Below are positions 1,541 to 29,974 of a DNA stretch of 64,000 nt, one piece after another. The DNA is from a bacterium. Its GTDB lineage: Bacteria; Patescibacteriota; Minisyncoccia; Phycocordibacterales; UBA9973. The stretch covers positions 9,074-73,073 of the forward strand of contig JAKAKW010000011.1 of assembly GCA_021824345.1 (NCBI GenBank), read 5' to 3'. The notes below the pieces were generated by a model. It searched no databases, was not told where the DNA came from, and was given only the letters and a program-made list of their open reading frames with translations. How positions within the stretch are numbered: position 1 is the stretch's first letter; every line of letters begins with the position of its first letter. Position numbers and translations under genes: made by a program.

Positions 1541-1581
1541 AAAAATAAAGAAAGGAGTTATACATTGGAACAAAATTACCC

Positions 1582-1646
1582 GGCCTTACTTTTCATTTCA
1601 ACAATATATCAATATATATTGGAAAAGTAAGGCCTTTCTCGTTTTT
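1582..1646 (+). terminator. Rho-independent terminator candidate after the CTD gene
   Basis: 13-bp stem ggccttacttttc (1582-1594) / gaaaagtaaggcc (1622-1634) with an AT-rich loop, followed by tttctcgttttt. Confidence 0.55.
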
Positions 1647-1771
1647 AACCGTTTTTTATAAATATGGGGTTTTCCACACGCAAATGGCGTATTTTTAATG
1701 CTTATAAAGGTATAATAAAGACTATTAATGGAAAAGAAAGACAAACAACCTGTCTAAATCAAACTATATTT

Positions 1772-4700
1772 ATGCGTAAAAAAATTTGGATAATTTTACT
1801 GGGAGTGCTTGCTGTGGCTATCGGTTCGTTTCTGCTGTACGGTAAAATCTTCGCGGCCCTGCCTCCCGGACCGTTAATCTCAATTACCACTTCCGTGCCG
1901 GCCAATGTGGACCAAGGTTCTACAGTTTATATAGGATATACCGTGGATCCGAGAGGGTATACCACCACCTGTCAATGGAACAATCTGGGCGGGAGTCAAT
2001 CAATTACAAGTATCGGCCCGTCTCTTGTCTACACGGACAACAAGATGCCACTTTATGGCTTTAGCTCTAGCAATTCAACGGCATCAATCACTTGTCAAAA
2101 TGCGCAGGGAACCAATACGCGCACTATGGCTTTTAGTGTATGGAATAAAGTTTCCTTTAACGTTATAAGTGGCGTGCAACAGTACGTCGTGCCTTCGGGA
2201 GTAAGCACAATTGGAATTGCGGTGAAAGGCGCCGGAGGCGGACAAGGGGGCGGTGAAGGCGGAAGCAATAGTTATCCGGGCGCAAATGGAGGCAAGGGCG
2301 GAGTGACCGTTCAGTTTGTGAATGTTACCGCGGGAAGCGCTATAAATATAGTTGCGGGAGGAAAGGGACATGGCGGAGGATACAACTCGGGTGGCGGGGG
2401 CGGAGGAGCATCTGCGGCTTACTATCCATCTGACGGTTCCAGCTTTAAGATAATAGCTGGCGGAGGCGGAGGGGGAGGGGCTGATGCATGGGACGGCAAC
2501 AAAATTTATGGCGGGGTAGGCGGTATGGGCGGTACTACAACCGGCGGTGGCGGAGGCGGAGGAGCCGGCAACGGAGCCGGAACCACGCTGGTTGACAACA
2601 ATTCTTATGCCCAAGGAGGAATAGCAGGAGGCGGAGGAGGAGGAAGCGGTTATTACCCCGGAGGTACCAGTAGCGCTACTGGCGGTTACGGGGGAGTAGC
2701 TATCGGAATCTTTTCGGCCGGGCAGAACGCAACCAGTTCTTCCGGATGCGGATTATATGGGAAGGGAGGCAATGGCGGAAGTTTGCTTGACGCAGCCGGA
2801 GGAGTTTGTAACAGAGCCTCTCCTACCGCGGGAGGAGACGGGCTTTATTCTGTTACGGGCAGTGCCATAACTACCAATCTCTCCAATGCGTTTTCATATG
2901 GCAGTGCCTCAAGCGGAGGAAGCGGGGGATTGCAGGTGGGAAATGACGGTTCCGACGGGGCAGTCTATATCTTTACACCTTCTCCCACCCCTCCACCGCC
3001 AGCGCCCATAATTGAACTTTCCGCGCAGAATGTGACGATGAATACGAATTCTACCGCTTATTCTAAAATAACTGCGTTGACTACAAATGTTTCTAGGCTT
3101 GATTGTTCAGTTATTGCTCTTCCAAGCTTCTTATCTTCTCCTTCTGCCGATTGTGCTCAAGTAGCCATTAAATCTGGTTCTACTGCTACAAGTCCGAATA
3201 GCCCAGCACAAGTGTCAATTCTCGCAAAAGGATATGATTTAAATGGTAATGCTATTACTAGTTCCTCATCTTGTTTAGGTACTGCTGTATGGAATGGTCA
3301 GCTCGGAGGTTGTCTAGCCACTTTTGACGTTACAGTCGTCTCCACTCCATCTTGCACTACAACATCCCAAGCTTCTAATCTAACTTCCACGTCTGCCACC
3401 GCAGGCGGAAATATTTCTGACACTGGCGGGGTTCCCATAATTAATCATGGGGTGTGTTACTCTACAAGCGTTGGCAGTATCCAGAGCAATTGTCCGTCTG
3501 ACACCTCTTCTGTCTCTACCGGCTCTTTCGCAGAGTCTTTATCTAACCTCTCTCCCGGTACTTCTTATTATTATCAAGCATTCGCCCAAAATTCCGTTGG
3601 TACTACATATTGTACCAATATGGGTTCGTTTACTACGCCACAGTCAACCTCTTATCTCCCAGATCTTACGCCCGACCCTAATTATCCCGGGGTTACGTTT
3701 CCCACTCCCGTAGTTGCCGGGAGTTCTACAACGTTTTCCCAAAGGATAACAAACATAGGCTCGGCGTCTTCCGGCCCGTTTTATACCCTTGTCCGCTTTG
3801 ACAATGACGCCAACCATGCCACATACAATACGTCTCTCTCAAAAGAAATTTTCTATCCAAATAATTTGGTCCCGACAGGCATAGCGACTATCTCCGCTTC
3901 TCAGACACTTCCCTCTGCCGGCACCTGGTATGTTCAAGCGTGCGCTGACATAAGCAACGAATCTACCATGACCGGTACGATTTCCGAATCAAATGAGGGT
4001 AATAATTGCGGGAATTGGACGCAGATCACGGTGACATCAGCTCCGGCCGTTCCCACTTGTACTTCTCCTGTTGTTACTAACATTACTGACACCTCGGCCA
4101 CCGTAGGTGGTACCATTACTTCAGACGGAGGCGCTACGATCACTTCCCGAGGAGTGGCTGTTAAAAGCAGTACCGGTTCTTATATATACACCGATTTGGG
4201 CGGAACAACAGGTCCGGTTACGAGAGATATTATCAATCTTACGCCCGGTGCTACATACTATTTCCAAGCATGGGCGAATAATAGCGTAGGGAGAGGATAT
4301 TGCCCAGAAACTTCTTTTACCGCGTTAAGAAATACCACGATCAACGGTGTTTGTGCCCCTGTCCACTATAACTGCGCCGCGGGAACAAGTAGCAGTAATG
4401 CGCTATCTTTTAGCGGTCTTAACAGTGTTTATTCATGGGGTTGTCTTGGTTCTAACGGAGGAGTTCCCGCATCCCCTTCATGTTCAGAAACATTGTCTAT
4501 GTCCGGCACTCTTACATCCGATGCCCCTTCCTGTGTAATTCAATCCGGCCAGAGCAGTTGTAATGTTACTTTGACATGGGGTACTACAAATCCTCAAGGA
4601 GTTTCCTCTGTTACGAGTCCGACAGACAGCACAGGAGCCTCGGTGTCTACTAGGGTGGGGACGGGGGATTCCGGTAGCCAGTTGGTTTCTATACCCTATC

Positions 4701-7399
4701 CAGGCAGGACTTTCTTCCTTTACAACAATACCAAATCACTTGTTCCGACTTCTGAATCTCCTACCGGCTCTGGATTGCGAATTACTGCGACTAATAGTGC
4801 TCCTTCCGCCCCCGATCTAATCGCTGCAACGGTTTCCCCCACGGCGGCTAATACCGGGGTCTCCACCACCTTCTCCGCCACTATCACCAACCAAGGCACG
4901 GCCGCGACCGGCACCAGCTTCTACAACTTCTTCCAGAAAGCCACCGGTTCCGGAGGAACAGGGACGGTAACTGATCTCACCGCAACCCAAATGTCTGCCC
5001 TGGCGGCGGGAGGGACCGGCACGGCATCCGTCTCCACTTCCTTCCCCCCCGCAGGCACCTACTCCATGCGCGCCTGCGCGGACAAGAGTTCTTCTTCCAA
5101 TACCGGCACCATCACCGAATCAAATGAAAACAACAACTGCGGACCCTGGACGGATATTACGGTGACGACGCCGACAACGGTAGCTCCCGACCTCGTCGCC
5201 GGAGCGGTTGCCCCGACCACAGCCATCGCGGGTGACATCCAGCCTCTTTCTTCCGTGATCTCCAACCAAGGCAGTCTCTCCACTAATTCAAGTTTCTCCG
5301 TCAAGTTCAGCGTCTCCGCTTCTCCCAGCGGTACCGGGGCTTCCACTATCAACACAACCACCATGGCGGCCTTAAACAGCGGAACCAGCGCCACCGCCAC
5401 TGTCTCATATACCTTCCCTTCGGCCGGCACCTACTATGTCCAGGCCTGCGCTGATTCAACTAACGTAATCACCGAATCAAATGAGAACAACAATTGCGGG
5501 CCGTTGACGACTATTGCTGTATCGGTGCCCCTCCCCGTCTGTTCCGCTCCCTCCGTCAGCACCGGTACCTCCGCCTCCAACATTACTTCCAGTTCCGCCA
5601 CCGGTACCGGATATATCACTTCGGACGGCGGGTGCGCGGTAATCGTGAGCGGAGGCGTATGGAGCGTGTCTCATATCCCGACTACGGCGGATCCCGCTAC
5701 TTTAAGTCATACCACCGACGGCTGGGCAAGCGGGGGACCGTACAACATCAATATGACCAGCTTGTCTCCAAGCACTCCGTATTATTATCGCGCCTATGCC
5801 ACCAACTCGGCCGGCAAGACGGGATACGGGTCTGAAACACCCTTCACTACTTTGTCCATAATTCCGCCGACCTGTTCCGCTCCCTCCGTCAGCACCACTT
5901 CTCCGGCCGCGAGTATTACCCAATCATCGGCGGTCGGCGGAGGAACCATCTCTTCGGACGGCGGGTGTGCCGTCTCTGTGAGCGGAGTGGTATGGGGAAC
6001 TTCCAACAATCCGACATTCAACCCGAATTCCGGCCCGCTCACCGGTTCTACGGGCCAGACGACCGACGGCTGGGCCTCGGGCGGACCCTGGACCGACAAT
6101 ATGACCGGTCTTTCTCCGAGCACCCCATACTACTATCGCGCCTACGCGGAGAATAGCGCCGGTATCGCCTATGGCAACAATGTGTCTTTCACTACCTTGT
6201 CCGCCGCTTGTTCCGTTCCTTCCGTTACCACCGGTTATCCTCTGAGCAATATCGGCTACAATTCCGCTACTGGATCCGGAGCCGTAACCTGGTTTGCCGG
6301 CGACTGCCCGGCGACTGTGAGCGGGGTGGTATGGAGTACCGCGAGCGATCCGACATACAATCCCAATGCGGGCGCGTTTTCCGGTTCTTCCGGCCAAACC
6401 ACGGACGGAACGACGGCTCTTGGATCTTCTTGGTATGACACCATGACCGGTTTGTCTCCCGTCGCCAATTACCATTATCGCGCCTACGCGGTGAACAGCG
6501 CCGGAGTCGGATATGGCAACGATGTGGCTTTTTCCACCACCGTGGCGCCGCCGAATGCCATGACCGGGACTCTCTCCCCGAGCGCGAATTCCTGCGTCAT
6601 CAGCCAAAACGGCAACTCTTGTTATATAAACCTTTCCTGGAACACGACCAATCCGGCGGCGACGTCGGCTGTCACCTCATCGTATCCGAGCGCCAACACT
6701 GTTTTATTCAGCGGCAATTCCGGGACGAATGAGCTGGTTTGGATTCCATACAACTCCAGAGACTTGTATCTGTACAATAACGGCACTCTTTTGGACAGCA
6801 AGAACATAACATCTTCTTGCGCTCCCGGCACGACCTGGAACAACAGCGCTTGTATTCCCTCAGGCAGTCCGGTTTCCGTTTCCATTACCGCGGATTCTAC
6901 CCAGATAGCCTTGGGCGGTTCAACCACCTTGCGCTGGACATCCGCGGGCGCTTCTTCCTGTTCCGTCACTTCCACCCCTCCGGGATTTTCTTCCAATCTC
7001 ACCGCCGGAAGCGCCACTATCCAGCCTTCCGCTACTACCACCTATACGGCGCATTGCGGCGATAACCTTGGAAATTCCGCGAGCGATTCGGTCACTGTGC
7101 GGGTTTCTCTCTCCGCTCCATCGGTTACTCTGACCGCGAATCCGGCCGCTGTCGCGCAAGGGAGCCCCTCCACTCTTTCCTGGACTTCCGCCAACGCCAG
7201 TTACTGTTACGGGTCCAACTTCAATGTTCCCGCAAGCGGCCCCAGCACTTCCGGCTCCGTATCGGTGAGCCCGGCCGCCACCACAACCTATACCATCATT
7301 TGCGTGGCGCCGGACGGCACCCAAGTGACCGGTTCGGCTACCGTTACCGTTTTGCCTCCGGGTAATGGAGGAAAAGCGCCTGTATATAAGGAAAAGTAA
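1772..7399 (+). CDS. Giant (about 1875 aa) secreted/cell-surface protein with a glycine-rich region, three CARDB-like domains and several FN3-like tandem domains (putative adhesin)
   Basis: The ORF opens at 1664, but the first plausible start is the ATG at 1772 (MRKKIWIILLGVLAVAIGSFLLYG signal/TM). Residues about 190-360 are Gly-rich (GAGGGQGGGEGG...GGGGGGGAD...GGGGGGSGYYPGG). Three domains end in the CARDB signature ESNE[GN]NNCG[NP]W (about nt 3660-4030, 4800-5160, 5180-5520). Repeated ...LSP.T.YYYRAYA.NS.G..YG FN3-like modules follow. Clean rho-independent terminator downstream. Internal minus-strand track ORFs (2084..2614, 5924..6607, 6920..7414 etc.) are GC-rich frame artefacts. Confidence 0.8.
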   Translation: MRKKIWIILLGVLAVAIGSFLLYGKIFAALPPGPLISITTSVPANVDQGSTVYIGYTVDPRGYTTTCQWNNLGGSQSITSIGPSLVYTDNKMPLYGFSSSNSTASITCQNAQGTNTRTMAFSVWNKVSFNVISGVQQYVVPSGVSTIGIAVKGAGGGQGGGEGGSNSYPGANGGKGGVTVQFVNVTAGSAINIVAGGKGHGGGYNSGGGGGGASAAYYPSDGSSFKIIAGGGGGGGADAWDGNKIYGGVGGMGGTTTGGGGGGGAGNGAGTTLVDNNSYAQGGIAGGGGGGSGYYPGGTSSATGGYGGVAIGIFSAGQNATSSSGCGLYGKGGNGGSLLDAAGGVCNRASPTAGGDGLYSVTGSAITTNLSNAFSYGSASSGGSGGLQVGNDGSDGAVYIFTPSPTPPPPAPIIELSAQNVTMNTNSTAYSKITALTTNVSRLDCSVIALPSFLSSPSADCAQVAIKSGSTATSPNSPAQVSILAKGYDLNGNAITSSSSCLGTAVWNGQLGGCLATFDVTVVSTPSCTTTSQASNLTSTSATAGGNISDTGGVPIINHGVCYSTSVGSIQSNCPSDTSSVSTGSFAESLSNLSPGTSYYYQAFAQNSVGTTYCTNMGSFTTPQSTSYLPDLTPDPNYPGVTFPTPVVAGSSTTFSQRITNIGSASSGPFYTLVRFDNDANHATYNTSLSKEIFYPNNLVPTGIATISASQTLPSAGTWYVQACADISNESTMTGTISESNEGNNCGNWTQITVTSAPAVPTCTSPVVTNITDTSATVGGTITSDGGATITSRGVAVKSSTGSYIYTDLGGTTGPVTRDIINLTPGATYYFQAWANNSVGRGYCPETSFTALRNTTINGVCAPVHYNCAAGTSSSNALSFSGLNSVYSWGCLGSNGGVPASPSCSETLSMSGTLTSDAPSCVIQSGQSSCNVTLTWGTTNPQGVSSVTSPTDSTGASVSTRVGTGDSGSQLVSIPYPGRTFFLYNNTKSLVPTSESPTGSGLRITATNSAPSAPDLIAATVSPTAANTGVSTTFSATITNQGTAATGTSFYNFFQKATGSGGTGTVTDLTATQMSALAAGGTGTASVSTSFPPAGTYSMRACADKSSSSNTGTITESNENNNCGPWTDITVTTPTTVAPDLVAGAVAPTTAIAGDIQPLSSVISNQGSLSTNSSFSVKFSVSASPSGTGASTINTTTMAALNSGTSATATVSYTFPSAGTYYVQACADSTNVITESNENNNCGPLTTIAVSVPLPVCSAPSVSTGTSASNITSSSATGTGYITSDGGCAVIVSGGVWSVSHIPTTADPATLSHTTDGWASGGPYNINMTSLSPSTPYYYRAYATNSAGKTGYGSETPFTTLSIIPPTCSAPSVSTTSPAASITQSSAVGGGTISSDGGCAVSVSGVVWGTSNNPTFNPNSGPLTGSTGQTTDGWASGGPWTDNMTGLSPSTPYYYRAYAENSAGIAYGNNVSFTTLSAACSVPSVTTGYPLSNIGYNSATGSGAVTWFAGDCPATVSGVVWSTASDPTYNPNAGAFSGSSGQTTDGTTALGSSWYDTMTGLSPVANYHYRAYAVNSAGVGYGNDVAFSTTVAPPNAMTGTLSPSANSCVISQNGNSCYINLSWNTTNPAATSAVTSSYPSANTVLFSGNSGTNELVWIPYNSRDLYLYNNGTLLDSKNITSSCAPGTTWNNSACIPSGSPVSVSITADSTQIALGGSTTLRWTSAGASSCSVTSTPPGFSSNLTAGSATIQPSATTTYTAHCGDNLGNSASDSVTVRVSLSAPSVTLTANPAAVAQGSPSTLSWTSANASYCYGSNFNVPASGPSTSGSVSVSPAATTTYTIICVAPDGTQVTGSATVTVLPPGNGGKAPVYKEK
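5527..6545 (+). repeat. Three tandem ~340-bp repeats encoding FN3-like domains inside the giant surface protein
   Basis: Protein-level repeats CSAPSVST..SDGGCAV.VSGVVW......DGWASGGP....MT.LSPSTPYYYRAYA.NSAG..YG appear three times and are visibly similar at DNA level (cctccgtcagcacc...). Confidence 0.6.
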
Positions 7400-7412
7400 T
7401 ACGGCGAAAAAC

Positions 7413-7446
7413 AAAAATCCTCCGGACTTTTCCGGAGGATTTTTGG
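7413..7446 (+). terminator. Rho-independent terminator of the giant surface-protein gene
   Basis: aaaaatcctccgga cttt tccggaggatttttgg: 10-bp GC-rich stem, 4-nt loop, T-run. Confidence 0.75.
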
Positions 7447-7458
7447 TATACTGTATTT

Positions 7459-8259
7459 ATGGCAAAAAGAACATTGATCGCCGGAAACTGGAAGATGAAT
7501 CCTCCATCCGTCCGGGAAGCGGAAAAAATTTTGAAGGGGGTAATGGCGCGAACGGCGGGACTCCGCAAGACAGAGATAGTGATATTTCCGCCCTCCGTTT
7601 TTATCGAAAGGCTGGTGAAAATTGCGGGCCGGAGCAAAATACGGCTGGGAGCGCAGGATGTATCGGTCCAATCAGGCTCGGGAGCCTTCACCGGCGAGGT
7701 TTCCGCGGATATGTTCTATGATTCCCGGGCCAGATATGCGATAGCGGGACACTCGGAACGCAGAAATCCGTCCGCAGGCAGAGGGGAAAGCAATCACGAG
7801 ATCAATTTTAAAATAAAAGCGGCGCTTGCCGCGGGCCTTTCTCCGGTGTTGTGCGTGGGGGAAAGGGAAAGAGACCGCGACCATGCGTACTTGCAGCTCA
7901 TCAAATCGCAGGTGGAGGAATGCTTGAAGGGAATATCCAAAAAATCTATGGAAAAGATGATAATCGCTTACGAGCCCGTCTGGGCCATAGGCAGGAATGC
8001 CGTCCGCGAAGCCGTGCCGGAAGAATTCCAAGAAATGAAAATCTTCATTAAAAAAATACTGGCCGACAAGTTCGGTATAGTTCCGGCGGATACCGTACGC
8101 ATATTGTATGGAGGATCCGTATCGCCGAAAAATGCTGAAGGATTTCTGCGCGAAGGCGAGGCGGACGGTTTTTTGGTCGGAAGAGACAGTCTGTCCCCGG
8201 ACAAATTCGGGCGGATAGCAAAAATCGCGGAAGACGCGGGGCAGTGGCGCCTTTCCTGA
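7459..8259 (+). CDS. tpiA: Triosephosphate isomerase
   Basis: MAKRTLIAGNWKMN...AIAGHSERR...VLCVGE...ILYGGSV: canonical TIM motifs. Confidence 0.9.
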   Translation: MAKRTLIAGNWKMNPPSVREAEKILKGVMARTAGLRKTEIVIFPPSVFIERLVKIAGRSKIRLGAQDVSVQSGSGAFTGEVSADMFYDSRARYAIAGHSERRNPSAGRGESNHEINFKIKAALAAGLSPVLCVGERERDRDHAYLQLIKSQVEECLKGISKKSMEKMIIAYEPVWAIGRNAVREAVPEEFQEMKIFIKKILADKFGIVPADTVRILYGGSVSPKNAEGFLREGEADGFLVGRDSLSPDKFGRIAKIAEDAGQWRLS

Positions 8260-19846: not shown

Positions 19847-20265
19847 AAATCAAAGTTAAAAAACTGAAGGAAGATGCGAAATTGCCGAAGTATGCCCATC
19901 CCGGAGATGTCGGCATGGATTTGTTTTCCATGGAAACAGTGACTATTGCGCCGGGAGAACATCACCGGTTCTGGCACGGATTTGCCCTGGAATTTCCCGT
20001 CGGCCACGCGGCCATCATAAAAGACAAGTCCAGCATTTCCAAGGCCGGTTTGCATACCATGGGCGGAGTTTTTGACGCCGGTTTTCGCGGGGAATATAAC
20101 ACTCATTTGGTAAATCTGTCCGACGAACCGTATTCAGTGGAGAAAGGGGACAAGGTTGCCCAGCTTTTGATTGTTCCCGTGGAAATTGTAGAATTAGAAG
20201 AGTCGGACGAGCTTGCCGATTCCTCCCGCGGCACGGGGGCCTTCGGATCTACCGGCAGGAAATAA
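19843..20265 (+). CDS. dut: dUTP diphosphatase
   Basis: AHPGDVGMDLFS...RSSISKAGL..GVFDAGFRGE...: dUTPase motifs. 4-nt overlap with the upstream gene. Confidence 0.9.
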   Translation: MKIKVKKLKEDAKLPKYAHPGDVGMDLFSMETVTIAPGEHHRFWHGFALEFPVGHAAIIKDKSSISKAGLHTMGGVFDAGFRGEYNTHLVNLSDEPYSVEKGDKVAQLLIVPVEIVELEESDELADSSRGTGAFGSTGRK

Positions 20266-21926
20266 TGAAGGAAAAGATAAAAAAATTAGTGAGCGAAGCG
20301 CTGGCCGAATTGAATTTGGGCGAGGTTTATTTTACCGTTGAACATCCGGATGATTCTGTAAACGGTGATTACTCCACGAACGTCGCGCTGGTTTTGTCCA
20401 AAAAGCTTAAACAGAATCCCAGGGAGGTGGCGGAAAAAATAATATCCGGCATCAAAAAACCGCCTGAGATTTCTGCGATAAAGCCGGCGGGCCCGGGCTT
20501 TATCAATTTCCATCTTTCACGAAAATTCTTCGCCGACACCATCGACGAAATTCTGGAGAAAAAAGAAAACTACGGCAAGAATAAAAATCTGGCGGGACAG
20601 AAGGTAATAGTGGAATACACCGATCCAAACCCGCTCAAAGAGTTTCATATCGGCCACTTAATGAGCAACACCATCGGCGAAGCCATTTCCCGGGTCGTTG
20701 AAGCCAGCGGCGCGGAAGTTAAGCGGGCCTGCTATCAAGGCGATGTCGGAATGCACGCCGCCAAGGCAGTGTGGGGATATTTGCACGAAAAAAATTGGAA
20801 GACCGCCTACGCATTCGGATCCAAGGCGTACGAAAAGGACGACAAAGTGAAGGAAGAGGTGCTTGCGGTCAACAAAAAACTGTATGAACGATCCGACCCG
20901 GAGCTAAACGCTATCTATGACCAAGGCAGAAAAGCTTCCCTGGAAAGTTTTGAAGAAATATATCGGAAGCTCGGCACCTCTTTCAATTACTATTTCTTTG
21001 AAAGCGAAACGGGCAAGCTTGGGAAGGAAATCGTGGAAGAAAACACCGGCAGCGTTTTTGAAAATGGAGATAAAGGCGCGATCGTATTTCATGCGGAAAA
21101 GTTCAATAAGAAACTGCATACCCGCGTCTTCATAAATTCCGAAGGCTTGCCCACTTATGAGGCGAAAGAACTGGGACTGGCGAAAATCAAATACGGCAAG
21201 TTTCCATACGACAAATCCATTGTTGTCACCGGCAATGAAATCAACCAGTATTTCCAAGTGCTTTTGGAGGCCATGAAGCGGGTGTTCCCGGAGCTCGCGG
21301 AGAAAACCAGACATATTTCCCACGGCATGCTCCGCCTTCCCACCGGCAAGATGTCTTCCAGGACAGGTGATGTAATCACCGGCGAATCGCTCATATCTTT
21401 GATTTCGGAAAAAGTGGTTGAAAAAGTGAAAGAAACCAATCGCGGAGAAATGACCGAAGAATTCATAAACCAAGTGGCCGTGGCGGCCCTGAAGTATTCC
21501 ATTCTGAAGCAGTCTATCGGCTCGGACATCATTTACGACTTTGATAAGTCCATTTCCTTTGAAGGAGATTCCGGTCCGTACTTGCAGTATTCATACGCCC
21601 GGGCCAAATCCGTGGCGGAAAAAGCGGAAAAAGAAGAAATTTTTATGAACGTGGAAAATCCGCCCGAGGAAATTTCCGCTCCCGAGCGTTTGCTTTATAT
21701 TTTCCCGGAAATTGTGGAAAGATCCGCCAGGGAATTCCAACCGCACCACATAGCGAATTATCTGATTGAGCTGGCCCGCGCCTTCAACGCATATTATGGG
21801 AATAATCGCATCGCGGACAAGAACGATGAAAGCTCCCCGTACAAAGTGGCCCTGGCCAGCGCCTTTGCCATTGTGATAAAAAACGGCCTGCGATTTCTCG
21901 GCATCCAGGCCCCGGAGAAGATGTAA
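20265..21926 (+). CDS. argS: Arginine--tRNA ligase
   Basis: Class I HIGH region (EFHIGHLMSNTIGEAISR) and ArgRS anticodon-binding C-terminus; TAATG overlap with dut. Confidence 0.9.
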   Translation: MKEKIKKLVSEALAELNLGEVYFTVEHPDDSVNGDYSTNVALVLSKKLKQNPREVAEKIISGIKKPPEISAIKPAGPGFINFHLSRKFFADTIDEILEKKENYGKNKNLAGQKVIVEYTDPNPLKEFHIGHLMSNTIGEAISRVVEASGAEVKRACYQGDVGMHAAKAVWGYLHEKNWKTAYAFGSKAYEKDDKVKEEVLAVNKKLYERSDPELNAIYDQGRKASLESFEEIYRKLGTSFNYYFFESETGKLGKEIVEENTGSVFENGDKGAIVFHAEKFNKKLHTRVFINSEGLPTYEAKELGLAKIKYGKFPYDKSIVVTGNEINQYFQVLLEAMKRVFPELAEKTRHISHGMLRLPTGKMSSRTGDVITGESLISLISEKVVEKVKETNRGEMTEEFINQVAVAALKYSILKQSIGSDIIYDFDKSISFEGDSGPYLQYSYARAKSVAEKAEKEEIFMNVENPPEEISAPERLLYIFPEIVERSAREFQPHHIANYLIELARAFNAYYGNNRIADKNDESSPYKVALASAFAIVIKNGLRFLGIQAPEKM

Positions 21927-22346
21927 CTAAGGAAAATAGGGATCTTTATTCTTCAGCACCAATTTTTTTGCTTCTTCAGCTAGGCGTTTGAATTTTTCTT
22001 CATCCTCATCCGTGAGCGAGTTTAATTTTTCAAATATTTCATTGAGCTTAGCTGTTCTTTTGGGATACTTTTCGATTCCGTTTTTCATTCTCTTATATTC
22101 AACAGCATCATCCCCGAACTTATTTTTTACTTCTCCCAACAATTTTTCCATTGTAGGAAAAAGATTTTCTTTTATTTCTTTATTAACCTCTGCAAATTTC
22201 CCATTCTGTTTTCTTAATTCCCTTACAAAATATGTGAGTGTAATTAAACATTCCTCAAAACCCAGGTTGTCAGGCACAGTCGTTAGATCTTCCTTCCCAG
22301 CATTCGTTTTTTCCATCTCGTTTCCATTCATATCAATATTGTACAT
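21927..22346 (-). CDS. Hypothetical K/E-rich coiled-coil protein (antisense to flanking genes)
   Basis: 139-aa ORF with no recognisable domain; AT-richer than flanks. Confidence 0.4.
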   Translation of the reverse strand: MYNIDMNGNEMEKTNAGKEDLTTVPDNLGFEECLITLTYFVRELRKQNGKFAEVNKEIKENLFPTMEKLLGEVKNKFGDDAVEYKRMKNGIEKYPKRTAKLNEIFEKLNSLTDEDEEKFKRLAEEAKKLVLKNKDPYFP

Positions 22347-22398: not shown

Positions 22399-25300
22399 AT
22401 GGCTTCCGGTGAAGAATCTAAAAAATCCGAATCTGCTCGGCGCGAAGAGCGGATTTTGGAGTTCTGGAAGGAGAATAAAATTTTTGAAAAAACTCTGGGA
22501 AAGCCGTCCCCCAAGGGGGAATTCGTTTTCTACGAAGGTCCGCCTACGGCCAATGGCAAACCTCACATAGGGCACTTTGAGGCGCGTTCTTTCAAGGATG
22601 CCGTTCCCAGGTACAAGACCATGCGCGGATACCATGTGCGTCGGAAAGGCGGATGGGACACCCACGGCCTGCCTGTGGAGCTTGCGGTGGAGAAAAAACT
22701 CGGGCTTAGTTCCAAAAAGGGGATAGAGGAATACGGAATTGCCAAGTTCAACGAGCAATGCAAGGAAAGCGTATGGGAATATGTGAACCTATGGGAAAAG
22801 TTCACCGAGCGCGTGGGATACTGGGTGGATCAGAAGGATGCCTACGTCACTTACCATAACGATTACATTGAATCTCTTTGGAATATCGTAAAAAAAATAG
22901 ATGAACAAGAACTGCTTTACAAGGATTACAAAGTGGTTCCGTGGTGTCCGCGCTGCGGGACGGCCCTTTCCTCGCACGAATTGGCGCAGGGATATGAGGA
23001 TGTGAAGGATCTGTCGGTGTATGTGAAATTCCGCGTGAAATCTTCGCCTGACGCTTTTGCGAAGGTCCTCGGTTCCCCTCGCACAAAGCTTGCTCCTTCG
23101 GAGCTGGAAGCTCGGCCAGACCATTCGCAAAAGCATTCAGTCGAGGATTTCACATATATTCTGGCATGGACCACTACCCCCTGGACTTTGCCGGGCAACG
23201 TTGCTTTAGCGGTAGGAAAAGATATTGATTACACCGCTTTGCGCGTAAAAGGGGTTTCCGAATTGTATATTCTCGCAAGCGATAGGGTAAAGAGTGTCTT
23301 TGAAGGGCAGGAAATTGAAATTGTGCATGACAACATAAAAGGATCAGATCTTGTCGGCCTGGAATACGAACCCTTGTATCCGTATTTCGCGAACACTCTT
23401 CCTGAGAGCGAAAAGTCCAAACTTCCAAAAGCATACAAGGTTTACGAAGCGGATTTTGTGACAACCGTTGACGGCACGGGCGTGGTGCATACCGCCGTGA
23501 TGTACGGACAAGACGACTTCGTGCTGGGCACCGCTATCGGTTTGCCCAAGCACCATCTCGTGGGTCTGGACGGGAAATTCCTGGCCGGCACTGATTTTCT
23601 TGAAGGAAGATTCGTGCGAGACGAAGATGTGGCAGTGGACATTATCAAAGACCTTGCGCACCGGAACCTTTTGCTAAAGAAAGAAAAGTACGAACACTCA
23701 TATCCTTTCTGCTGGCGCTGCCATACCGCGCTCATATATTACGCGCGGGACTCGTGGTACATAAAAGTTTCAGATCCGCGGATTAAGGAAAAGATGATTT
23801 CTGAGAATGAGAAGATAAACTGGGAGCCGGCGCACATTCGGGACGGGCGTTTCGGAGAATGGCTGCGCGATATCAAGGACTGGGCGATTTCCCGCGAGCG
23901 GTACTGGGGAACTCCGCTTCCGGTGTGGACATGCGAGAAATGCAACCAGAGGATTACCATCGGAAGCATTGAGGAACTGAAAAAGCATACGAAGAAATCC
24001 GGCAATCGGTACTTCTTTATGCGGCATGGAGAAGCAGAGAGCAATGTTAAGGGTATGGTGGCTTGCAGAGTGGAGGATAACGATAATTTAATCGAGGCCG
24101 GGAAACAACAAGTATTGTCTTCGGCAAAACAACTAAAAGAAAAGAATATTGATCTTATTTTCTCCTCGGATATTTTGAGGACGAAAGAGACAGCTGAAAT
24201 TGTTAAAAAAGAAATTAGTACTGAAAAAGAAATAATTTTTGACAAGCGCCTGCGCGAGTGGAACGTAGGAAAATTTGACGGAAAAACATGGCACGAATAT
24301 AAAAAATTTGCGCGCCAACACGATGATTGGTACAGTTTTATCCCTGAGGGAGGCGAATCATTCAAAGATATAAAGATTAGAGTTTTTGATTTCATTTACG
24401 AATTGGAGAATAAATACCAAGGGAAAAATATCTTGATCGTCACTCACCAGGCTCCGATTGTAGTTATTCTTAAGGGTTTAGATAAACTTAATGATGAAGA
24501 TACAAAGGCAGGTGATAGCGATGTGAACTTAAGATTCAAGGGAGGAGAGTTTAAAGAGATAGATTTTACCTTACTTCCCCACAACAAAAACTACGAGCTG
24601 GATTTGCACCGGCCATACATAGACGAGGTTCCGCTGGTCTGCGATTGCGGAGGAAAACTTTCTCGTACACCGGAGGTTATGGACGTCTGGTTTGATTCCG
24701 GTTCCATGCCGTTTGCCCAGGATCATTATCCTTTTGAGAACAAAGACTGGATTGACGATCACGGATATCCGGCTGATTTCATATCGGAGGCCATAGATCA
24801 GACTCGCGGATGGTTCTATACCCTGCACGCCGTGGGAGCGCTTGTGGGGAAGGGCAGGGCATACAAAAATGTAATCTGTCTCGGACACCTGATGGATGCC
24901 GAGGGAAAGAAAATGTCAAAACATATCGGCAACGTAGTGGACCCCTGGGAGATGATAGAGAAATACGGGGCGGATACTTTGCGATTATGGATGTACTCCA
25001 TAAACCAGCCGGGCGAGTCCAAGAATTTTGATGAAAAAACGGTGGTGCTTCTCCACCGGCAAATGTTCGGTCTGCTTTACAATGTGCTTTCTTTCTACGA
25101 GCTTTACCGCGACAAAGAGCTTGAGACGATGGGAGGCAAGGCCTCCCACCGGCCTGCCTCGGAAAATATTCTGGATAAGTGGATAATTACGCGATTAAAC
25201 GAGCTGGAGATTCTGTGCACGGAAAATCTTGAGAAATATAAATTATTGGAACCCGTGCGGGCCATGCGCGATTTCATCGACGATCTGTCCACTTGGTATT

Positions 25301-26016
25301 TGCGCCGATCCAGGGAGCGCATTAAGGACGGGGACAAGGATGCCAAGCGCACTTTGTACTTTGTGTTGAAAAATCTTGCCAAGCTTCTGGCCCCGTTCGC
25401 TCCTTTTGCCACCGAGGATATATGGCAAAAGCTTAAAAGCGATGAGGACCCTGCAAGCGTTCATTTGTCCGAGTGGCCGTACAAGGACCAATCCCTTTTG
25501 CAAAAGCTTTTCGGAAAGAAAGAAAAAGTGGATTACTCAGTGCTGGAAAATATGCGCCGAGCCAGGCAGATTGTGACAATGGGCTTGGAAGCTCGGCAGA
25601 AAGCGGGCATAAAGGTGCGCCAACCGCTCGGACTTTTGAGGATAAAGGATCGGAATCTTTCATCGGAGTATGAAGAGCTCATCAAGGACGAGCTCAATGT
25701 TAAAGAAATTGCCAAAGATGCCGGCCTAGAAGGAGAAGTGTTGCTTAATACTGAAATTACTCCTGAACTTAAAGAAGAAGGCGACTATCGCGAACTGGTT
25801 CGCGCTATTCAGGATATGCGCAAAGAGGCGGGGCTCTTACCGAGCGACATGGTAACGCTTCTTTTGGATACTGATGAATCTGGCGAAAAGCTGGCCAAAA
25901 AATTTGAAGAAGATCTGAAGAAAACTGTTAGCGCCGAAAAAATTGAATTCACGGAAAGCGACGGTCCGGAAATCAAAATCGGCAATTCAGCGTTTAAGAT
26001 AAAAATTCAAAAATAG
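22399..26016 (+). CDS. ileS: Isoleucine--tRNA ligase (type 2) carrying three insertions
   Basis: HIGH (PTANGKPHIGH), CP1 editing (WTTTPWTLPGN), KMSKS (KMSKHIGN). 1205 aa is about 150-200 aa longer than typical type-2 IleS. Insertions at 23062-23128, 24001-24570 and 25130-25148 are annotated separately. Confidence 0.9.
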   Translation: MASGEESKKSESARREERILEFWKENKIFEKTLGKPSPKGEFVFYEGPPTANGKPHIGHFEARSFKDAVPRYKTMRGYHVRRKGGWDTHGLPVELAVEKKLGLSSKKGIEEYGIAKFNEQCKESVWEYVNLWEKFTERVGYWVDQKDAYVTYHNDYIESLWNIVKKIDEQELLYKDYKVVPWCPRCGTALSSHELAQGYEDVKDLSVYVKFRVKSSPDAFAKVLGSPRTKLAPSELEARPDHSQKHSVEDFTYILAWTTTPWTLPGNVALAVGKDIDYTALRVKGVSELYILASDRVKSVFEGQEIEIVHDNIKGSDLVGLEYEPLYPYFANTLPESEKSKLPKAYKVYEADFVTTVDGTGVVHTAVMYGQDDFVLGTAIGLPKHHLVGLDGKFLAGTDFLEGRFVRDEDVAVDIIKDLAHRNLLLKKEKYEHSYPFCWRCHTALIYYARDSWYIKVSDPRIKEKMISENEKINWEPAHIRDGRFGEWLRDIKDWAISRERYWGTPLPVWTCEKCNQRITIGSIEELKKHTKKSGNRYFFMRHGEAESNVKGMVACRVEDNDNLIEAGKQQVLSSAKQLKEKNIDLIFSSDILRTKETAEIVKKEISTEKEIIFDKRLREWNVGKFDGKTWHEYKKFARQHDDWYSFIPEGGESFKDIKIRVFDFIYELENKYQGKNILIVTHQAPIVVILKGLDKLNDEDTKAGDSDVNLRFKGGEFKEIDFTLLPHNKNYELDLHRPYIDEVPLVCDCGGKLSRTPEVMDVWFDSGSMPFAQDHYPFENKDWIDDHGYPADFISEAIDQTRGWFYTLHAVGALVGKGRAYKNVICLGHLMDAEGKKMSKHIGNVVDPWEMIEKYGADTLRLWMYSINQPGESKNFDEKTVVLLHRQMFGLLYNVLSFYELYRDKELETMGGKASHRPASENILDKWIITRLNELEILCTENLEKYKLLEPVRAMRDFIDDLSTWYLRRSRERIKDGDKDAKRTLYFVLKNLAKLLAPFAPFATEDIWQKLKSDEDPASVHLSEWPYKDQSLLQKLFGKKEKVDYSVLENMRRARQIVTMGLEARQKAGIKVRQPLGLLRIKDRNLSSEYEELIKDELNVKEIAKDAGLEGEVLLNTEITPELKEEGDYRELVRAIQDMRKEAGLLPSDMVTLLLDTDESGEKLAKKFEEDLKKTVSAEKIEFTESDGPEIKIGNSAFKIKIQK
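23062..23128 (+). repeat. About 66-nt repeat element inserted in-frame in ileS (encodes roughly AKVLGSPRTKLAPSELEARPDHSQ); second copy at 36154-36215
   Basis: aggtcctcggttcccctcgc...agctggaagctcggccagaccat has a 23-nt identical core and about 75-80% identity over 70 nt with the tatD-rpsF spacer copy. From a remembered T. thermophilus IleS alignment, this IleS has about 28 extra residues between VKFRVK and WTTTPWTLPGN. Confidence 0.65.
24001..24570 (+). other. Inserted histidine-phosphatase (phosphoglycerate-mutase-like) domain within ileS
   Basis: FFMRHGEAESN (RHG catalytic motif), IFSSDILRTKETAEIV, DKRLREWNVG, IPEGGES, IVTHQAPI match the PhoE/GpmB-type histidine phosphatase fold. The insert lies between the conserved PVWTCEKC...ELKKH and DLHRPYIDEV...VMDVWFDSG IleS segments and is AT-richer than the flanking ileS sequence. 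Confidence 0.7.
25130..25148. repeat. Family-B palindrome copy (tgggaggcaaggcctccca) in-frame inside ileS, encoding GGKASH
   Basis: Exact match to the intergenic family-B element (31422-31440); translates as MGGKASH within a variable IleS linker. Confidence 0.6.
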
Positions 26017-26017
26017 A

Positions 26018-26602
26018 ATGGAAATTCCTAAGCCGAAATCCAAACAGCCGATCCCGGAGAATGCGAAATGCGTGTTTCATGGAGAAATTTTTGATGTGTA
26101 TCAATGGGAGCAAAAAATGTATGACGGAAGTACTGCGACCTTTGAAAAACTGAAGCGGCCGGACACAGTAGTAATTTTCCCGATATTGCCTGACGGGAAA
26201 ATTCTTCTTGTTGAACAAGAACAACCCGGGAAAGATCCTTTCATAGGGACTCCTGGGGGCAGGGTGGACCTAGGAGAAGATATACTGGAAGCCGCCAAGC
26301 GGGAGTTACTGGAAGAGACCGGCTATGAAGCGAAAAAATTTATTTTATGGGATGCTCAACAGCCGGTAAGCAAGATTGAGTGGTCTGTGTATACCTTTGT
26401 CGCCAAGGGTTTGAAAAAAGTAGCGGATATGAATTTGGATGCGGGAGAAAAGATAGAACTGAAACCAGTGACATTCAATGAATTTATGGAAATAAGTGTA
26501 AAACGAAATTTCAGCGAGCGGGAAATTGTATTGAAAATAATGGAAGCAAGATTAATTTCCGAGAAAAGAAAGGAACTTCAAAAGTTATTCTCTCCGGAAT
26601 AG
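26018..26602 (+). CDS. NUDIX hydrolase (ADP-ribose pyrophosphatase-like)
   Basis: Nudix box GGRVDLGEDILEAAKRELLEETG. Confidence 0.8.
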   Translation: MEIPKPKSKQPIPENAKCVFHGEIFDVYQWEQKMYDGSTATFEKLKRPDTVVIFPILPDGKILLVEQEQPGKDPFIGTPGGRVDLGEDILEAAKRELLEETGYEAKKFILWDAQQPVSKIEWSVYTFVAKGLKKVADMNLDAGEKIELKPVTFNEFMEISVKRNFSEREIVLKIMEARLISEKRKELQKLFSPE

Positions 26603-27370: not shown

Positions 27371-27961
27371 ATGCACCACATATACCATACTGAAGGGATT
27401 ATTTTGGGAAGCCGAAACTACGGCGAGTCCGGGAAATATTATTATCTCTTTACTCGCGATTTGGGAATGATAACGGCGGCCGCCCGCGGGGTGCGCAAGA
27501 TGCCTTCCAAATTGCGTTATATTTTAAGTGATTTTTCCTACATTAAAACAGACCTGGTGCGGGGAAAAGATTTTTGGCGGATCACCAGCGCGTCCAAAAC
27601 CAATACATTGGAAAAAATTTCCAAGCATCCCGAAACTCTGAGGATTTTTGCCGGTATTTCCCGCCTGCTTAGGAAACTGTTGGCCGGCGAAGAGCCCAAT
27701 ACTGAACTCTTTGACGACCTATTAAAAGGCCTGGAAGCGCTTGAAAAATGTTCCGATGACGGGGAGCTTCGCGACATCGAAGCGGTGGTGGTGCTTCGGG
27801 TCCTGTACAAGCTCGGATATGTGGGCGCAGACGAATCCGTGGAAAGCCTCGCGCGCTCTCCTTTTGCGGGGGACATGGCATACCGCGCGGCTTCCCAAAG
27901 AAAAAAAATTCTCTCCGAAATCAACAAGGCTCTGCGGGAAAGCATGCTATATGGCGCGTAA
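27371..27961 (+). CDS. recO: DNA repair protein RecO (short form)
   Basis: N-terminal OB-fold segment TEGIILGSRNYGESGKYYYLFTRDLGMITAAARGVRK matches RecO (EGIVL.S..YGE.D.I..LLT...G......G.R). Confidence 0.7.
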   Translation: MHHIYHTEGIILGSRNYGESGKYYYLFTRDLGMITAAARGVRKMPSKLRYILSDFSYIKTDLVRGKDFWRITSASKTNTLEKISKHPETLRIFAGISRLLRKLLAGEEPNTELFDDLLKGLEALEKCSDDGELRDIEAVVVLRVLYKLGYVGADESVESLARSPFAGDMAYRAASQRKKILSEINKALRESMLYGA

Positions 27962-28048: not shown

Positions 28049-29974
28049 ATGGCAGGAGACTCAGACAAATTAAATCGGCTGGAAGAATTAAAAACAAAGC
28101 TTTCCGGGAAAAATTATCGAATGAAAATCGGCAACCGAGAAGACTTTGTCCATCCATACAAAAGCGAGATATCTGATTCATGGGGAGGAAAAGAAAAAGA
28201 GAAGGAATCATTTTCGGACAAATTTTTTACCCAGACCTCCGCTTTCAAAAAATTTTTCATTTTTTCCATAATATTTTTCATACTTGCGGCCGGGTTCGCC
28301 GCTTTCACTTTTTTCTTCAAGGGCAATACCATTTCCAACAGCAATATCGGAATATCCGTGCTGGGCAATCCATTTGCGGCCGGCGGGGAGCCGCTTTCTC
28401 TGCAAATAGAAATTACGAACAAAAACAGTTCGCCTCTCGAGCTGGCCGATCTTTTGGTGGAGTATCCGAAAAGCGCTTCGGACAGCCTGGCTTCAAACGC
28501 TGAAAGGCAAAGAATAAACATCGGCACCGTTCCCGCCGGCGGGGTGCGGGATGAGAATGTAACCGTGGTGCTTTATGGCGAACAAGGAAGCGTGAAGCCG
28601 GTGAAAATAACTCTGGAATATCGAGTGGAAGGATCCAACGCCATCTTTGTGAAAGAGAAGGACTATCAAGTTTCCATCAACTCCACTCCTTTGTCTCTTT
28701 CCATTGATGTCCCTCCGAACGTCAGTCCGAATCAGAATGTTACCTTGAACATAAAAACCACATTGAATTCCACCATACCCGCAAAGAACATATTGGTCAG
28801 CGCGGACTACCCGGTGGGATTCCAGTTTGTATCGGCCAATCCCGCTCCGTCTTTCGGGAACAATGTCTGGACCCTTGGAGATCTGGCGCCCGGAGTGGAA
28901 AGGGATATTTCCGTTACCGGAAAAATAATAGGGGCGGCCAGCGGAGAGGACAAGACTTTTCACATATACAGCGGTTCGGAGAGCGATACCGATCAGTCAA
29001 AAATAGGCATAATTTTCAATTCACTTTCTCAGACGATAGCCGTGGAGAAGCCTTTCATTGCCGCCATGCTCTACCTCAACGGATCATATCAGGATCAGTA
29101 TGCGGTAGACGAAAGCACTCCTTTGGTGGGGGAGATACATTGGGCCAACAATCTTGATACCCAAGTAAACGATATGCGAATTACCGCCAAGATTTCCGGC
29201 AACGCCATGGATCCCGCTCAGATATCTTCCCAAGACGGGTTCTACGATTCCACCAAGGATTCCATCGTCTGGGATAAAAATTCGGACAGCGATCTTTCAC
29301 AGGTGGCTCCGGGCGGATCCGGGGTGGTGAAATTTACCATGTCTCCGCTGCCTCTCTACGGATCAAACGGACTCCTGTCCAATCCTTCCATCCGCATAGA
29401 TGTGTCGGTCTCGGGGAAACAGCCTCTTTCGGGCAATGCCTCCACCGATTTGCAAAATTCAGAATCAAAAACAGTTAAAATAATTTCGGATGTGGGATTG
29501 TCCGCCCAGGCCTTCTATTCTTCCGGACCATTTCAGAATTCCGGACCGGTTCCGCCGAAAGTCGGACAGAAAACCACTTACACTGTCACCTGGTCCGTGA
29601 CCAATACGGCCAACAATATATCCAAGGCGCAGGTAAAATCTTCTTTGCCTCCATGGATAGATTACGCCGGGATAGTTTCTCCCCCTTCAGAGGATTTCAG
29701 CTATAATCCTTCCACCAAGCAATTGGTTTGGAATGTCGGAAACATCGCCAAAGGGACGGGTATCACCGGCGGCAGCCGGCAAGTGAGCTTCCAAATAGAG
29801 TTCACGCCGTCGCTCTCCCAAGTCGGGGCCGCTCCCACCCTGGTGAACGACGCCGTTTTGACCGGGCATGATGATTTTGCTAATGTAGACGTGACGGTGA
29901 ACAAGACCGCCTTGAGCACCAGGCTCGGCAGTGATCCGAATTTCCCGGCCAGCGGAGAAAGGGTAGTGCAGTAG
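28049..29974 (+). CDS. Hypothetical membrane-anchored extracellular repeat protein
   Basis: Short charged N-terminus, one TM helix (FFIFSIIFFILAAGFAAFTFFF), then about 550 aa of beta-rich Ig/CARDB-like repeats; no catalytic motifs. Confidence 0.65.
   Translation: MAGDSDKLNRLEELKTKLSGKNYRMKIGNREDFVHPYKSEISDSWGGKEKEKESFSDKFFTQTSAFKKFFIFSIIFFILAAGFAAFTFFFKGNTISNSNIGISVLGNPFAAGGEPLSLQIEITNKNSSPLELADLLVEYPKSASDSLASNAERQRINIGTVPAGGVRDENVTVVLYGEQGSVKPVKITLEYRVEGSNAIFVKEKDYQVSINSTPLSLSIDVPPNVSPNQNVTLNIKTTLNSTIPAKNILVSADYPVGFQFVSANPAPSFGNNVWTLGDLAPGVERDISVTGKIIGAASGEDKTFHIYSGSESDTDQSKIGIIFNSLSQTIAVEKPFIAAMLYLNGSYQDQYAVDESTPLVGEIHWANNLDTQVNDMRITAKISGNAMDPAQISSQDGFYDSTKDSIVWDKNSDSDLSQVAPGGSGVVKFTMSPLPLYGSNGLLSNPSIRIDVSVSGKQPLSGNASTDLQNSESKTVKIISDVGLSAQAFYSSGPFQNSGPVPPKVGQKTTYTVTWSVTNTANNISKAQVKSSLPPWIDYAGIVSPPSEDFSYNPSTKQLVWNVGNIAKGTGITGGSRQVSFQIEFTPSLSQVGAAPTLVNDAVLTGHDDFANVDVTVNKTALSTRLGSDPNFPASGERVVQ

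Follow-up and report, generated by a model that had tools for sequence, protein, structure and literature searches.

The closest described relative of the gene studied here is the isoleucyl-tRNA synthetase (IleRS) of SR1, which was reported, in one sentence, to be interrupted by a NUDIX domain and two phosphoglycerate-mutase (PGAM) domains (Kantor et al., 2013, mBio, PMC3812714). That report holds no analysis of insertion sites, conservation or distribution, and we found no other description of an IleRS with a PGAM-family insert in the open-access literature and bioRxiv. Here we examine a window, that is, a stretch of 64,000 nucleotides (nt) from a member of the Patescibacteriota (GTDB lineage Minisyncoccia; Phycocordibacterales; UBA9973; GenBank assembly GCA_021824345.1, contig JAKAKW010000011.1, forward-strand positions 9,074 to 73,073), whose ileS gene contains a histidine-phosphatase domain. 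Our comparisons suggest that this gene probably encodes a bifunctional enzyme, in which a complete branch-1 histidine phosphatase of ~190 amino acids (aa) is set into a loop on the surface of the catalytic domain of an intact type-2 IleRS, and that the phosphatase is a selected partner of the synthetase. The likeness to SR1 is that of an IleRS from the Candidate Phyla Radiation (CPR) interrupted by a domain of the PGAM superfamily. The window gene differs in having a single His_Phos domain, in lacking a NUDIX domain inside its open reading frame (ORF; a separate NUDIX gene lies at 26018-26602), and in belonging to a Paceibacteria-like lineage. An earlier, sequence-only reading of this DNA had recognized the domain while knowing of no aminoacyl-tRNA synthetase (aaRS) with a PGAM module, a statement that is not quite right given the SR1 enzyme.

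The gene is a single unbroken ORF in the ORF listing of the window (22399-26016, + strand, 1205 aa). In Pfam, its tRNA-synt_1 match (E 1e-117) is interrupted by His_Phos_1 (PF00300) at aa 539-699 and followed by Anticodon_1 and DUF5915. The His_Phos_1 match covers profile positions 2-163 of 194 and scores 118.8 bits, far above the gathering threshold of 21.7 (E 3.1e-34), while the whole protein passes the NCBIfam ileS model TIGR00392 with 873.3 bits against a curated equivalog cutoff of 621.4. The features of the gene are given below; here and throughout, locus counts out of 80 refer to the best 80 of at least 148 relatives.

22399..26016, + strand: ileS, a complete type-2 IleRS of 1205 aa with the nested domain (TIGR00392; 8c8v/1ile; HIGH, KMSKH and WTTTPWT).
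22399..23994, + strand: N-terminal portion of IleRS, aa 1-532, comprising the first Rossmann half, the CP1 editing domain and the second half as far as CEKC (first Zn-knuckle half) and ...IEELKKH (Pfam, structure alignment).
23932..23943, + strand: first half of the Zn knuckle, C512-E-K-C515 (alignment, motif check).
23995..24564, + strand: nested His_Phos_1 (branch 1) domain, aa ~533-722.
24022..24030, + strand: RHG motif, R542, H543 (presumed nucleophile) and G544 (80/80 aligned inserts).
24103..24576, + strand: block of low GC content at third codon positions (GC3), codons 569-726, GC3 0.34 against 0.565 elsewhere in the gene (change-point scan).
24178..24180, + strand: R594, second arginine of the phosphate pocket, in LRTKET (80/80).
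24256..24258, + strand: E620, presumed general acid/base, in RLRE (E in 77/80, D in 3/80).
24445..24447, + strand: H683, second catalytic histidine, in VTHQ (80/80).
24565..26016, + strand: C-terminal portion of IleRS, with LPHNKNYELDLHRPYIDEV, DVWFDSG, KMSKH, the anticodon-binding domain and DUF5915 (Pfam, structure alignment).
24640..24648, + strand: second half of the Zn knuckle, C748-D-C750 (alignment, motif check).

The host enzyme is well preserved. It has the class-I signatures PHIGH at aa 55 (HIGH, aa 55-59) and KMSKH at 838, together with the CP1 editing motif WTTTPWT at 257, and the first four KMSKS positions are kept in 73-79 of the 80 insert-bearing homologues. It fits the type-2 subclass, which is eukaryote-like and of the mupirocin-insensitive type (8c8v, E 1e-234; 1ile, E 5e-226), far better than the type-1 class of S. 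aureus and E. coli (1ffy, E 1.7e-90), and both type-2 structures, from Priestia megaterium (IleRS2, 8c8v) and Thermus thermophilus (1ile), align with it end to end and share the same Zn-knuckle element. It does not belong with the mupirocin-resistance enzymes MupA and MupB, for which it scores 779 and 762 bits against NCBIfam exception cutoffs of 1900. Pfam gives only aaRS families and His_Phos_1 within the ORF, with no intein, homing-endonuclease or mobile-element domain, no NUDIX and no second His_Phos. Compared with 8c8v, the protein has one more lineage-specific insertion, a short one of ~33 aa (PDAFAKVLGSPRTKLAPSELEARPDHSQKHSVE; aa 217-249, nt 23047-23145), where the CP1 editing domain starts; with a predicted local distance difference test (pLDDT) score of 54-68 in the full-length model, it is probably a disordered loop.

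The place of the insertion is precise. In the alignment to 8c8v, residue 532 of the window protein corresponds to residue 479 of the chain and residue 731 to residue 483, so that ~198 residues stand where the known type-2 structures have 3. The insert proper, delimited with insert-less IleS of relatives and with a homologue (P0240) in which this site is empty, is aa ~533-722, or nt 23995-24564, and the same alignment assigns the LPxNxxxExDLHRP stretch after it to the host. The order of motifs along the protein is CEKC (512), RHGE (542), LRTKET (593), RLREW (617), GGES (651), VTHQ (681), DLHRPYID (735) and DVWFDSG (762). The sequence-only reading had placed a histidine phosphatase at 24001-24570, in frame between two IleS segments that are the halves of the Zn-knuckle region, and these coordinates are nearly those found here: each motif that it quoted is present in the ORF, and the His_Phos_1 profile, the alignments to type-2 IleRS and the insert-less relatives all agree with it. 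The complete set of four Zn-knuckle cysteines is retained by only ~29/80 insert-bearing IleRS and lost in ~50/80, and the insert is therefore independent of the Zn knuckle.

Such an arrangement could be an artifact or an accident of one genome, be it an assembly chimera or a recent selfish insertion, and the insert is indeed much AT-richer than its host (GC3 difference of -0.19). The ileS DNA is, for its part, 100% identical in the metagenome-assembled genome (MAG) GCA_027428375.1 at NCBI (DAICBP010000002.1), in an ENA assembly of another sample and in a Logan assembly from a different run. The gene is complete in the first two, the Logan contig holds its positions 1317-3618 with both insert junctions, and the 1205-aa protein is on record on 7 contigs. 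Because three independent assemblies are identical and span the junctions, a chimera is excluded.

The relatives dispose of the accident as well. HMMER, run exhaustively against the representatives of 1.84 billion protein clusters (50% identity), returned 269 proteins at E <= 1e-30, and at least 150 clusters are listed, all at 183 bits or more; most of these 150 representatives match in one stretch over both junctions, and many are full length, with 1100-1270 aa. A pattern-based search over GTDB, with one genome for each species and an alignment of 6 sequences as its input, found a relative in at least 148 species. The best 80 are labelled almost exclusively as Patescibacteria: Paceibacterota/Parcubacteria, Zambryski-, Adler-, Nomura-, Wolfe-, Colwell- and Taylorbacteria, Minisyncoccia and one Gracilibacteria chromosome. 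IleS, insert and IleS follow each other in a single ORF at the identical position in 79 of these 80 loci, and the insert measures 189-208 aa in 78 and 163-165 aa in two. The window gene shares this architecture, which we call site A: one ORF in which ~190-205 aa are inserted between ...GS.xxL... and ...LP.N...DLHRP.ID. A query made of the insert and ~50 aa of IleS on each side also recovered dozens of gene fragments of up to 544 aa that combine PF00133 and PF00300 at 40-57% identity, labelled Paceibacterota, Nomurabacteria, Nealsonbacteria and Magasanikbacteria, among others.

Since an equivalent insert sits at the same site across many Patescibacteria, it is a lineage feature and not the singular or recent event that the sequence-only reading had entertained; as these comparisons show, the IleRS-His_Phos architecture is old and widespread in the group. 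The homologues are not contamination from a single organism either, because their mutual identity is 35-60%. With the conservation of the catalytic residues and the substitution ratios well below 1 described in the following paragraphs, the identical assemblies and the lack of intein or mobile-element domains by Pfam, a one-off origin is effectively refuted. The public annotation of such genes is often fragmentary or misleading, with "histidine phosphatase family protein, partial" or "class I tRNA ligase family protein, partial" among the product names (proteins P0026, P0028, P0030, P0036 and P0037; locus L007). Some relatives lie on short contigs labelled as non-CPR (Nanoarchaeota, Sedimentisphaerales, Spirochaetia), probably through mis-binning.

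The insert appears to be a live enzyme. At a mean identity of only ~36% among the inserts of the 80 aligned sequences, R542, H543, G544, R594, R661 and H683 are invariant, N549 is found in 76/80 and E620 is Glu in 77/80 and Asp in 3/80. The window domain retains all of the constellation RHG-N-R-E-E-R-H, as do 135/187 copies at site A, and the complete catalytic pattern is found in all the tandem copies and copies at other sites presented below, as well as in 12/13 standalone proteins. The ratio of nonsynonymous to synonymous substitution rates (dN/dS), taken from pairs without saturated synonymous sites, is 0.04-0.27 for the insert against 0.03-0.11 for the host gene; judged by these ratios, the insert is under purifying selection, somewhat relaxed.

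Structure prediction also favors a self-contained domain. The AlphaFold2 model of aa 531-732 (83-row alignment) has a mean pLDDT of 95.2 and a predicted template modelling (pTM) score of 0.92, with the alpha/beta fold of a branch-1 histidine phosphatase. In the near-full-length model the blocks of the insert keep a pLDDT of 90-98, except two at aa 691-710 (79 and 69), and the junction blocks reach 91 and 94 on the N-terminal side and 90 and 85 on the C-terminal side, as would be expected if the domain is autonomous and its linkers short. The nearest folds are small-molecule phosphatases of the PhoE/CobC/PspA/GpgP type. The cap region is kept in 78/80 inserts. In the inserts of 163-165 aa (L063 and L073), as in P0023 and P0041, roughly the cap region (profile positions ~89-124) is gone while the core catalytic residues remain; only P0041 departs from this, with Asp in place of Glu. 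The active site of such variants may be open.

A catalytically dead module, kept as a scaffold that for instance replaces the lost Zn knuckle, is for these reasons very improbable. It would agree with the loss of the knuckle cysteines in ~50/80, and with the copies that have RHA/RHT variants or Glu-to-Asp or, in two cases, a ~35-aa deletion. A pure scaffold would have no need, though, of the intact constellation in the window and in most site-A copies, nor of core arginines and histidines invariant in 80/80, and the standalone homologues share the same catalytic pattern.

What turns an insertion into a probable partnership is that the phosphatase is found with IleRS repeatedly and in different ways. 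Among all the proteins retrieved, a profile of the insert finds one copy in 220, two in 8 and four in 1. Tandem copies occur at site A in P0244, P0245 and P0252, and P0238 has four. Two proteins (P0223, P0259) carry the domain at site C, between WFDSG and KMSKS, and three at site B, after KMSKS and just before the anticodon-binding domain (P0169, P0257 and P0240, the last with site A empty). The standalone proteins of ~190 aa closest to the insert are 42-49% identical to it and form a tight clade of their own; standalone homologues make up at least 120 clusters, mostly from Staskawiczbacteria and other Parcubacteria. In 8/8 sampled loci, and in locus L075, the standalone gene lies upstream of an insert-less ileS (946-987 aa) on the same strand, and it directly adjoins ileS in 6/8 and in L075, with a gap that goes from an overlap to 141 nt. 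The context shared by these loci is argS - HisPhos - ileS - ... - recO - CLIPPER-like surface protein, of which only the HisPhos-ileS pair was read in L075, while the locus L087 ends inside ileS. The window matches this synteny with its argS, ileS, recO and a 641-aa surface protein (28049-29974), the phosphatase being inside ileS instead. Its neighboring genes are the following:

20265..21926, + strand: argS, the synteny anchor; the standalone phosphatase lies between argS and ileS in sister lineages.
21927..22346, - strand: AT-rich (GC ~0.32) ORF of 139 aa in the argS-ileS slot, which elsewhere is the slot of the standalone His_Phos; no family match above threshold, annotated as a gene in the source contig.
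26018..26602, + strand: gene for a NUDIX hydrolase, with its start 2 nt beyond the stop codon of ileS (Pfam NUDIX, E 1.5e-15); its link to the module is uncertain.
27371..27961, + strand: recO, the downstream anchor common to the lineages with a standalone phosphatase.

Adjacency, three sites and tandem copies make up a Rosetta-stone pattern, which argues that the linkage itself is selected. The idea of a selfish insertion that is merely tolerated, also put forward in the sequence-only reading, is contradicted by the invariant catalytic residues, by a dN/dS of 0.04-0.27, and by the existence of three sites together with a standalone gene next to ileS.

Alternatively, selection could act on the activity of the phosphatase and not on its linkage: a housekeeping metabolic phosphatase or mutase (of PhoE, PspA or short dPGM type), ancestrally a neighbor of ileS, would have become nested in permissive loops during genome streamlining, through neutral or co-expression fusion. 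We find this possible, if rather doubtful. The standalone form does lie within a housekeeping cluster (pyrH-like AA_kinase-argS-HisPhos-ileS-recO), the fold and the cap resemble those of small-molecule metabolic phosphatases, the unconserved Zn-knuckle context speaks for a permissive loop, and the insert is mildly acidic (median net charge -4), with no sign of RNA binding. Yet the in-frame nesting of a whole ORF is rare, and here it is seen at three sites of IleRS and in 2-4 tandem copies with all catalytic residues kept. ArgRS is equally adjacent, and no fusion to it or to any non-aaRS partner is found among the matches listed. The linkage also persists from Paceibacteria to Gracilibacteria and SR1, and further nucleotide- or phosphoryl-transfer domains accumulate in the IleRS of CPR bacteria.

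One of these further domains is found in P0249, which has His_Phos at site A and, at site C (aa ~720-905, between WFESG and the PADFIAEGLDQTRGWFY motif), a P-loop kinase-like domain with the Walker A motif GACGAGKTT and matches to Pfam AAA_18/AAA_33. Its similarities are weak throughout: adenosine 5'-phosphosulfate (APS) kinase, shikimate kinase, Pnkp1 (E 0.056) and PezT.

The NUDIX gene of the window belongs to a highly conserved (~70% identity) standalone family of ~195 aa present in many CPR candidate phyla, and its exact protein sequence is on public record. We considered it as the counterpart of the NUDIX domain inside the SR1 enzyme and rejected this: phmmer finds no conserved NUDIX beside ileS in 80 loci, none of the top 120 NUDIX homologues is fused to IleRS, and the Moranbacteria contexts are unrelated.

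In the partnership that we favor, the nested forms would be covalent versions of the two-gene module argS-HisPhos-ileS, and comparative genomics points to a phosphatase that is a selected partner of IleRS and not a passenger. The phosphatase subfamily is associated with the synthetase in four configurations: as a separate upstream gene, at site A (single or in 2-4 tandem copies), at site C and at site B. In the window its loop lies between the two halves of the Zn knuckle, within the second Rossmann half, and the linkers are short. By analogy with the chemistry of the superfamily, H543 would attack a phosphomonoester to form a phospho-histidine intermediate, E620 would act as general acid/base and donate the proton, and R542, N549, R594, R661 and H683 would form the phosphate pocket.

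Several observations pull the other way and temper this interpretation. The proximity of the standalone gene to ileS may by itself favor fusions, with no need for a functional link, and the argument for functional coupling is a comparative one only. In two loci other genes part the standalone phosphatase from ileS, as a neutral history would also have it: in L100 a gene for a pyridoxal-phosphate (PLP) enzyme, and in L087 a gene of unknown function together with a diversity-generating retroelement. The co-insertion of the P-loop domain is a single cluster, and the adjacency of NUDIX and ileS is not conserved elsewhere. The breadth searches used IleS-flanked queries or patterns, so that the at least 148 species and at least 150 clusters count carriers and give no carrier fraction for Patescibacteria. 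The near-full-length AlphaFold2 model has a pTM of only 0.65, with a poor N-terminus (pLDDT below 50 at aa 1-12, 28-91 and 135-152) where alignment coverage is thin. Also, the structural neighbors of the insert are equidistant from it, so none of them singles out a substrate, and every NCBIfam equivalog scores below its curated cutoff: CobC (92.9 bits against 162.9), PspA (65.4 against 350), GpmB and, with the insert and its flanks alone as query, SixA (35.5 against 74.5) and dPGM (TIGR01258, NF038349 and related models; dPGM_arch 88.6 against 225, pgm_1 28.7 against 81.7). The standalone relative P0080 likewise remains under all equivalog cutoffs. No substrate can therefore be transferred from the characterized relatives.

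The genes that intervene in these two loci deserve a brief description. The PLP-enzyme gene of L100 (5084-6100; JGI 3300025323; PALP) has weak threonine-synthase-like matches far below cutoff, which could hint at a phospho-amino-acid substrate or be a coincidence. The pair in L087 that resembles a diversity-generating retroelement (6618-8055; ENA ERZ24794671 NODE_4080) comprises a bAvd accessory protein and an RVT_1 reverse transcriptase, whose ORF overlaps the start of ileS.

As to what the phosphatase may act on, our tentative guess, which we hold with less than even confidence, is a small and probably nucleotide-derived phosphomonoester whose turnover is tied to the activity or expression of IleRS, because the cap is retained, the structural neighbors act on small molecules, the surface is acidic, and NUDIX and P-loop-kinase modules occur in other CPR IleRS. 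In a stronger version of the partnership, which we regard as unlikely, the phosphatase would be an obligate accessory of IleRS in Patescibacteria, acting at or near the active site of the synthetase on a translation-related phospho-substrate, and the NUDIX and P-loop-kinase modules would have been recruited in some lineages to complete a nucleotide- or RNA-end-processing pathway. Candidate substrates would then be nucleotide by-products, a phosphorylated 3' end of tRNA-Ile, or a phosphorylated residue of the KMSKS region of IleRS.

The target could, on a different account, be a macromolecule, as for PGAM5, Sts-1 or SixA: either IleRS itself, phosphorylated on Ser, Thr or His near the KMSKS loop by a regulatory or toxin kinase, or a tRNA-Ile with a 2'/3'-phosphate to be healed. 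In class-I aaRS, the region from WFDSG to KMSKS is the entrance of the synthetic active site, and all three insertion sites are located around it in primary sequence. The two lineages with cap-deleted inserts of 163-165 aa would resemble the open site of SixA, and in P0249 the phosphatase stands beside a P-loop kinase-like module, a pairing also seen in RNA end-healing enzymes, the module's match to Pnkp1 being weak. But the cap is present in 78/80 inserts, the domain is acidic, and no conserved kinase partner is seen in the neighborhoods, so that we judge a macromolecular target to be quite improbable, and return to the selected partnership with a small-molecule phosphatase.

The history of this particular copy is a separate matter from the age of the architecture. 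The insert is AT-richer than the rest of ileS (GC 0.37 against 0.49), as the sequence-only reading had noted when it proposed a late acquisition, and its GC3 is 0.38 against 0.56-0.57. The difference ranks 2/74 among lineages, many GC-rich hosts carrying inserts that match their composition, and the best two-breakpoint GC3 segment, codons 569-726, has a log-likelihood ratio of 13.9 that was reached by 0/100 permutations, with its 3' break at the end of the insert. The architecture itself is old, and what may survive of the late acquisition is thus a fairly recent replacement of the copy.

The divergence of insert and host is only loosely coupled (Pearson 0.37, with 0/2000 Mantel permutations reaching the observed value). 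Some close pairs are concordant in host and insert identity (0.91/0.94 and 0.80/0.70) and others are not (0.79/0.34 and 0.78/0.36; overall, hosts at 78-80% with inserts at 34-47%), and in the pair L009/L010 the synonymous divergence (dS) is 0.27 for the host and 0.009 for the insert. These erratic ratios, together with L009/L010, indicate an occasional cassette-like exchange of the insert via the conserved IleS flanks. Whether recombination with a relative of lower GC replaced the copy in the window itself, at a fairly recent date, is a question on which we are evenly divided. Three observations speak against it: the insert evolves faster than its host in general (mean p-distance 0.64 against 0.52); low GC3 values recur in the C-terminal end of ileS, which is poorly conserved, and over the full length of several genes in the window; and the insert of the closest overall relative, P0121, is ~50% identical, about as similar as that of the discordant L001. 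For this last reason we rejected the discordance with L001 as proof of a swapped insert, and the ~50% identity of P0121 suggests that the insert is mostly just fast-evolving. The idea of a swap rests now only on the GC3 outlier and on the discordant pairs elsewhere. Across the 64 kb, GC3 is heterogeneous: the genes of the first ~46 kb mostly have 0.52-0.64, and most genes from ~46.9 kb onward, with a few earlier ones, have 0.38-0.50. Scans of the whole window for tRNA genes and for Rfam families found none.

The aaRS are among the most conserved enzymes, and a second, apparently active domain nested in their Rossmann-fold core is rare. Here we put this nested architecture as the norm across a large part of the CPR. 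The repeated tie between phosphatase and IleRS is a Rosetta-stone signal for a functional partnership that nobody has characterized, and its study could uncover a new accessory step of translation or of nucleotide housekeeping among organisms of minimal metabolism. If the phosphatase were an obligate accessory, this would be a new kind of aaRS-linked phosphoryl-transfer function. In any case, the insert provides a ready lineage marker and a natural case of tolerated domain insertion for protein engineering.

The window gene belongs to a kind already mentioned in the literature but barely described and functionally uncharacterized; in the searchable literature we found no description of its breadth, of the three insertion sites, of the adjacency of the standalone gene to ileS, or of the signs of cassette exchange. 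The relatives of the insert with known substrates, such as PhoE/YhfR (1h2e, 1ebb), CobC (6e4b, 6nru), PspA (4ij5) and glucosyl-3-phosphoglycerate phosphatase (6s2q, 4pz9), are free-standing, whereas the window domain is nested and scores below the equivalog cutoffs. Mycobacterial MutT1 (Rv2985; PDB 9cxx, 3fjy) joins a NUDIX domain to a C-terminal RHG histidine-phosphatase domain (PMC11784022); that is a terminal fusion of a SixA-like phosphatase to NUDIX, in contrast with the nested, PhoE-like domain and aaRS partner of the window. His_Phos is also combined with a kinase or a nucleic-acid enzyme in PFK-2/FBPase-2 (P-loop kinase and His_Phos), in the RNase H/acid phosphatase of the Rv2228c type and in TFIIIC tau55, all of them end-to-end fusions and none with an aaRS, unlike the window gene. 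The RNase H/acid phosphatase model NF005567 is the second-best NCBIfam phosphatase match of the insert, with 91.9 bits against a cutoff of 326. IleRS, in turn, is known as a recipient of an additional enzymatic domain from NF040702 (ileS_w_GNAT), where the addition is a GNAT domain and not a phosphatase, and to which the window protein does not belong (301 bits against a cutoff of 1999). The likeness with PFK-2/FBPase-2 extends to the IleRS of P0249, which also joins a P-loop kinase-like module to a histidine phosphatase, there within a tRNA synthetase.

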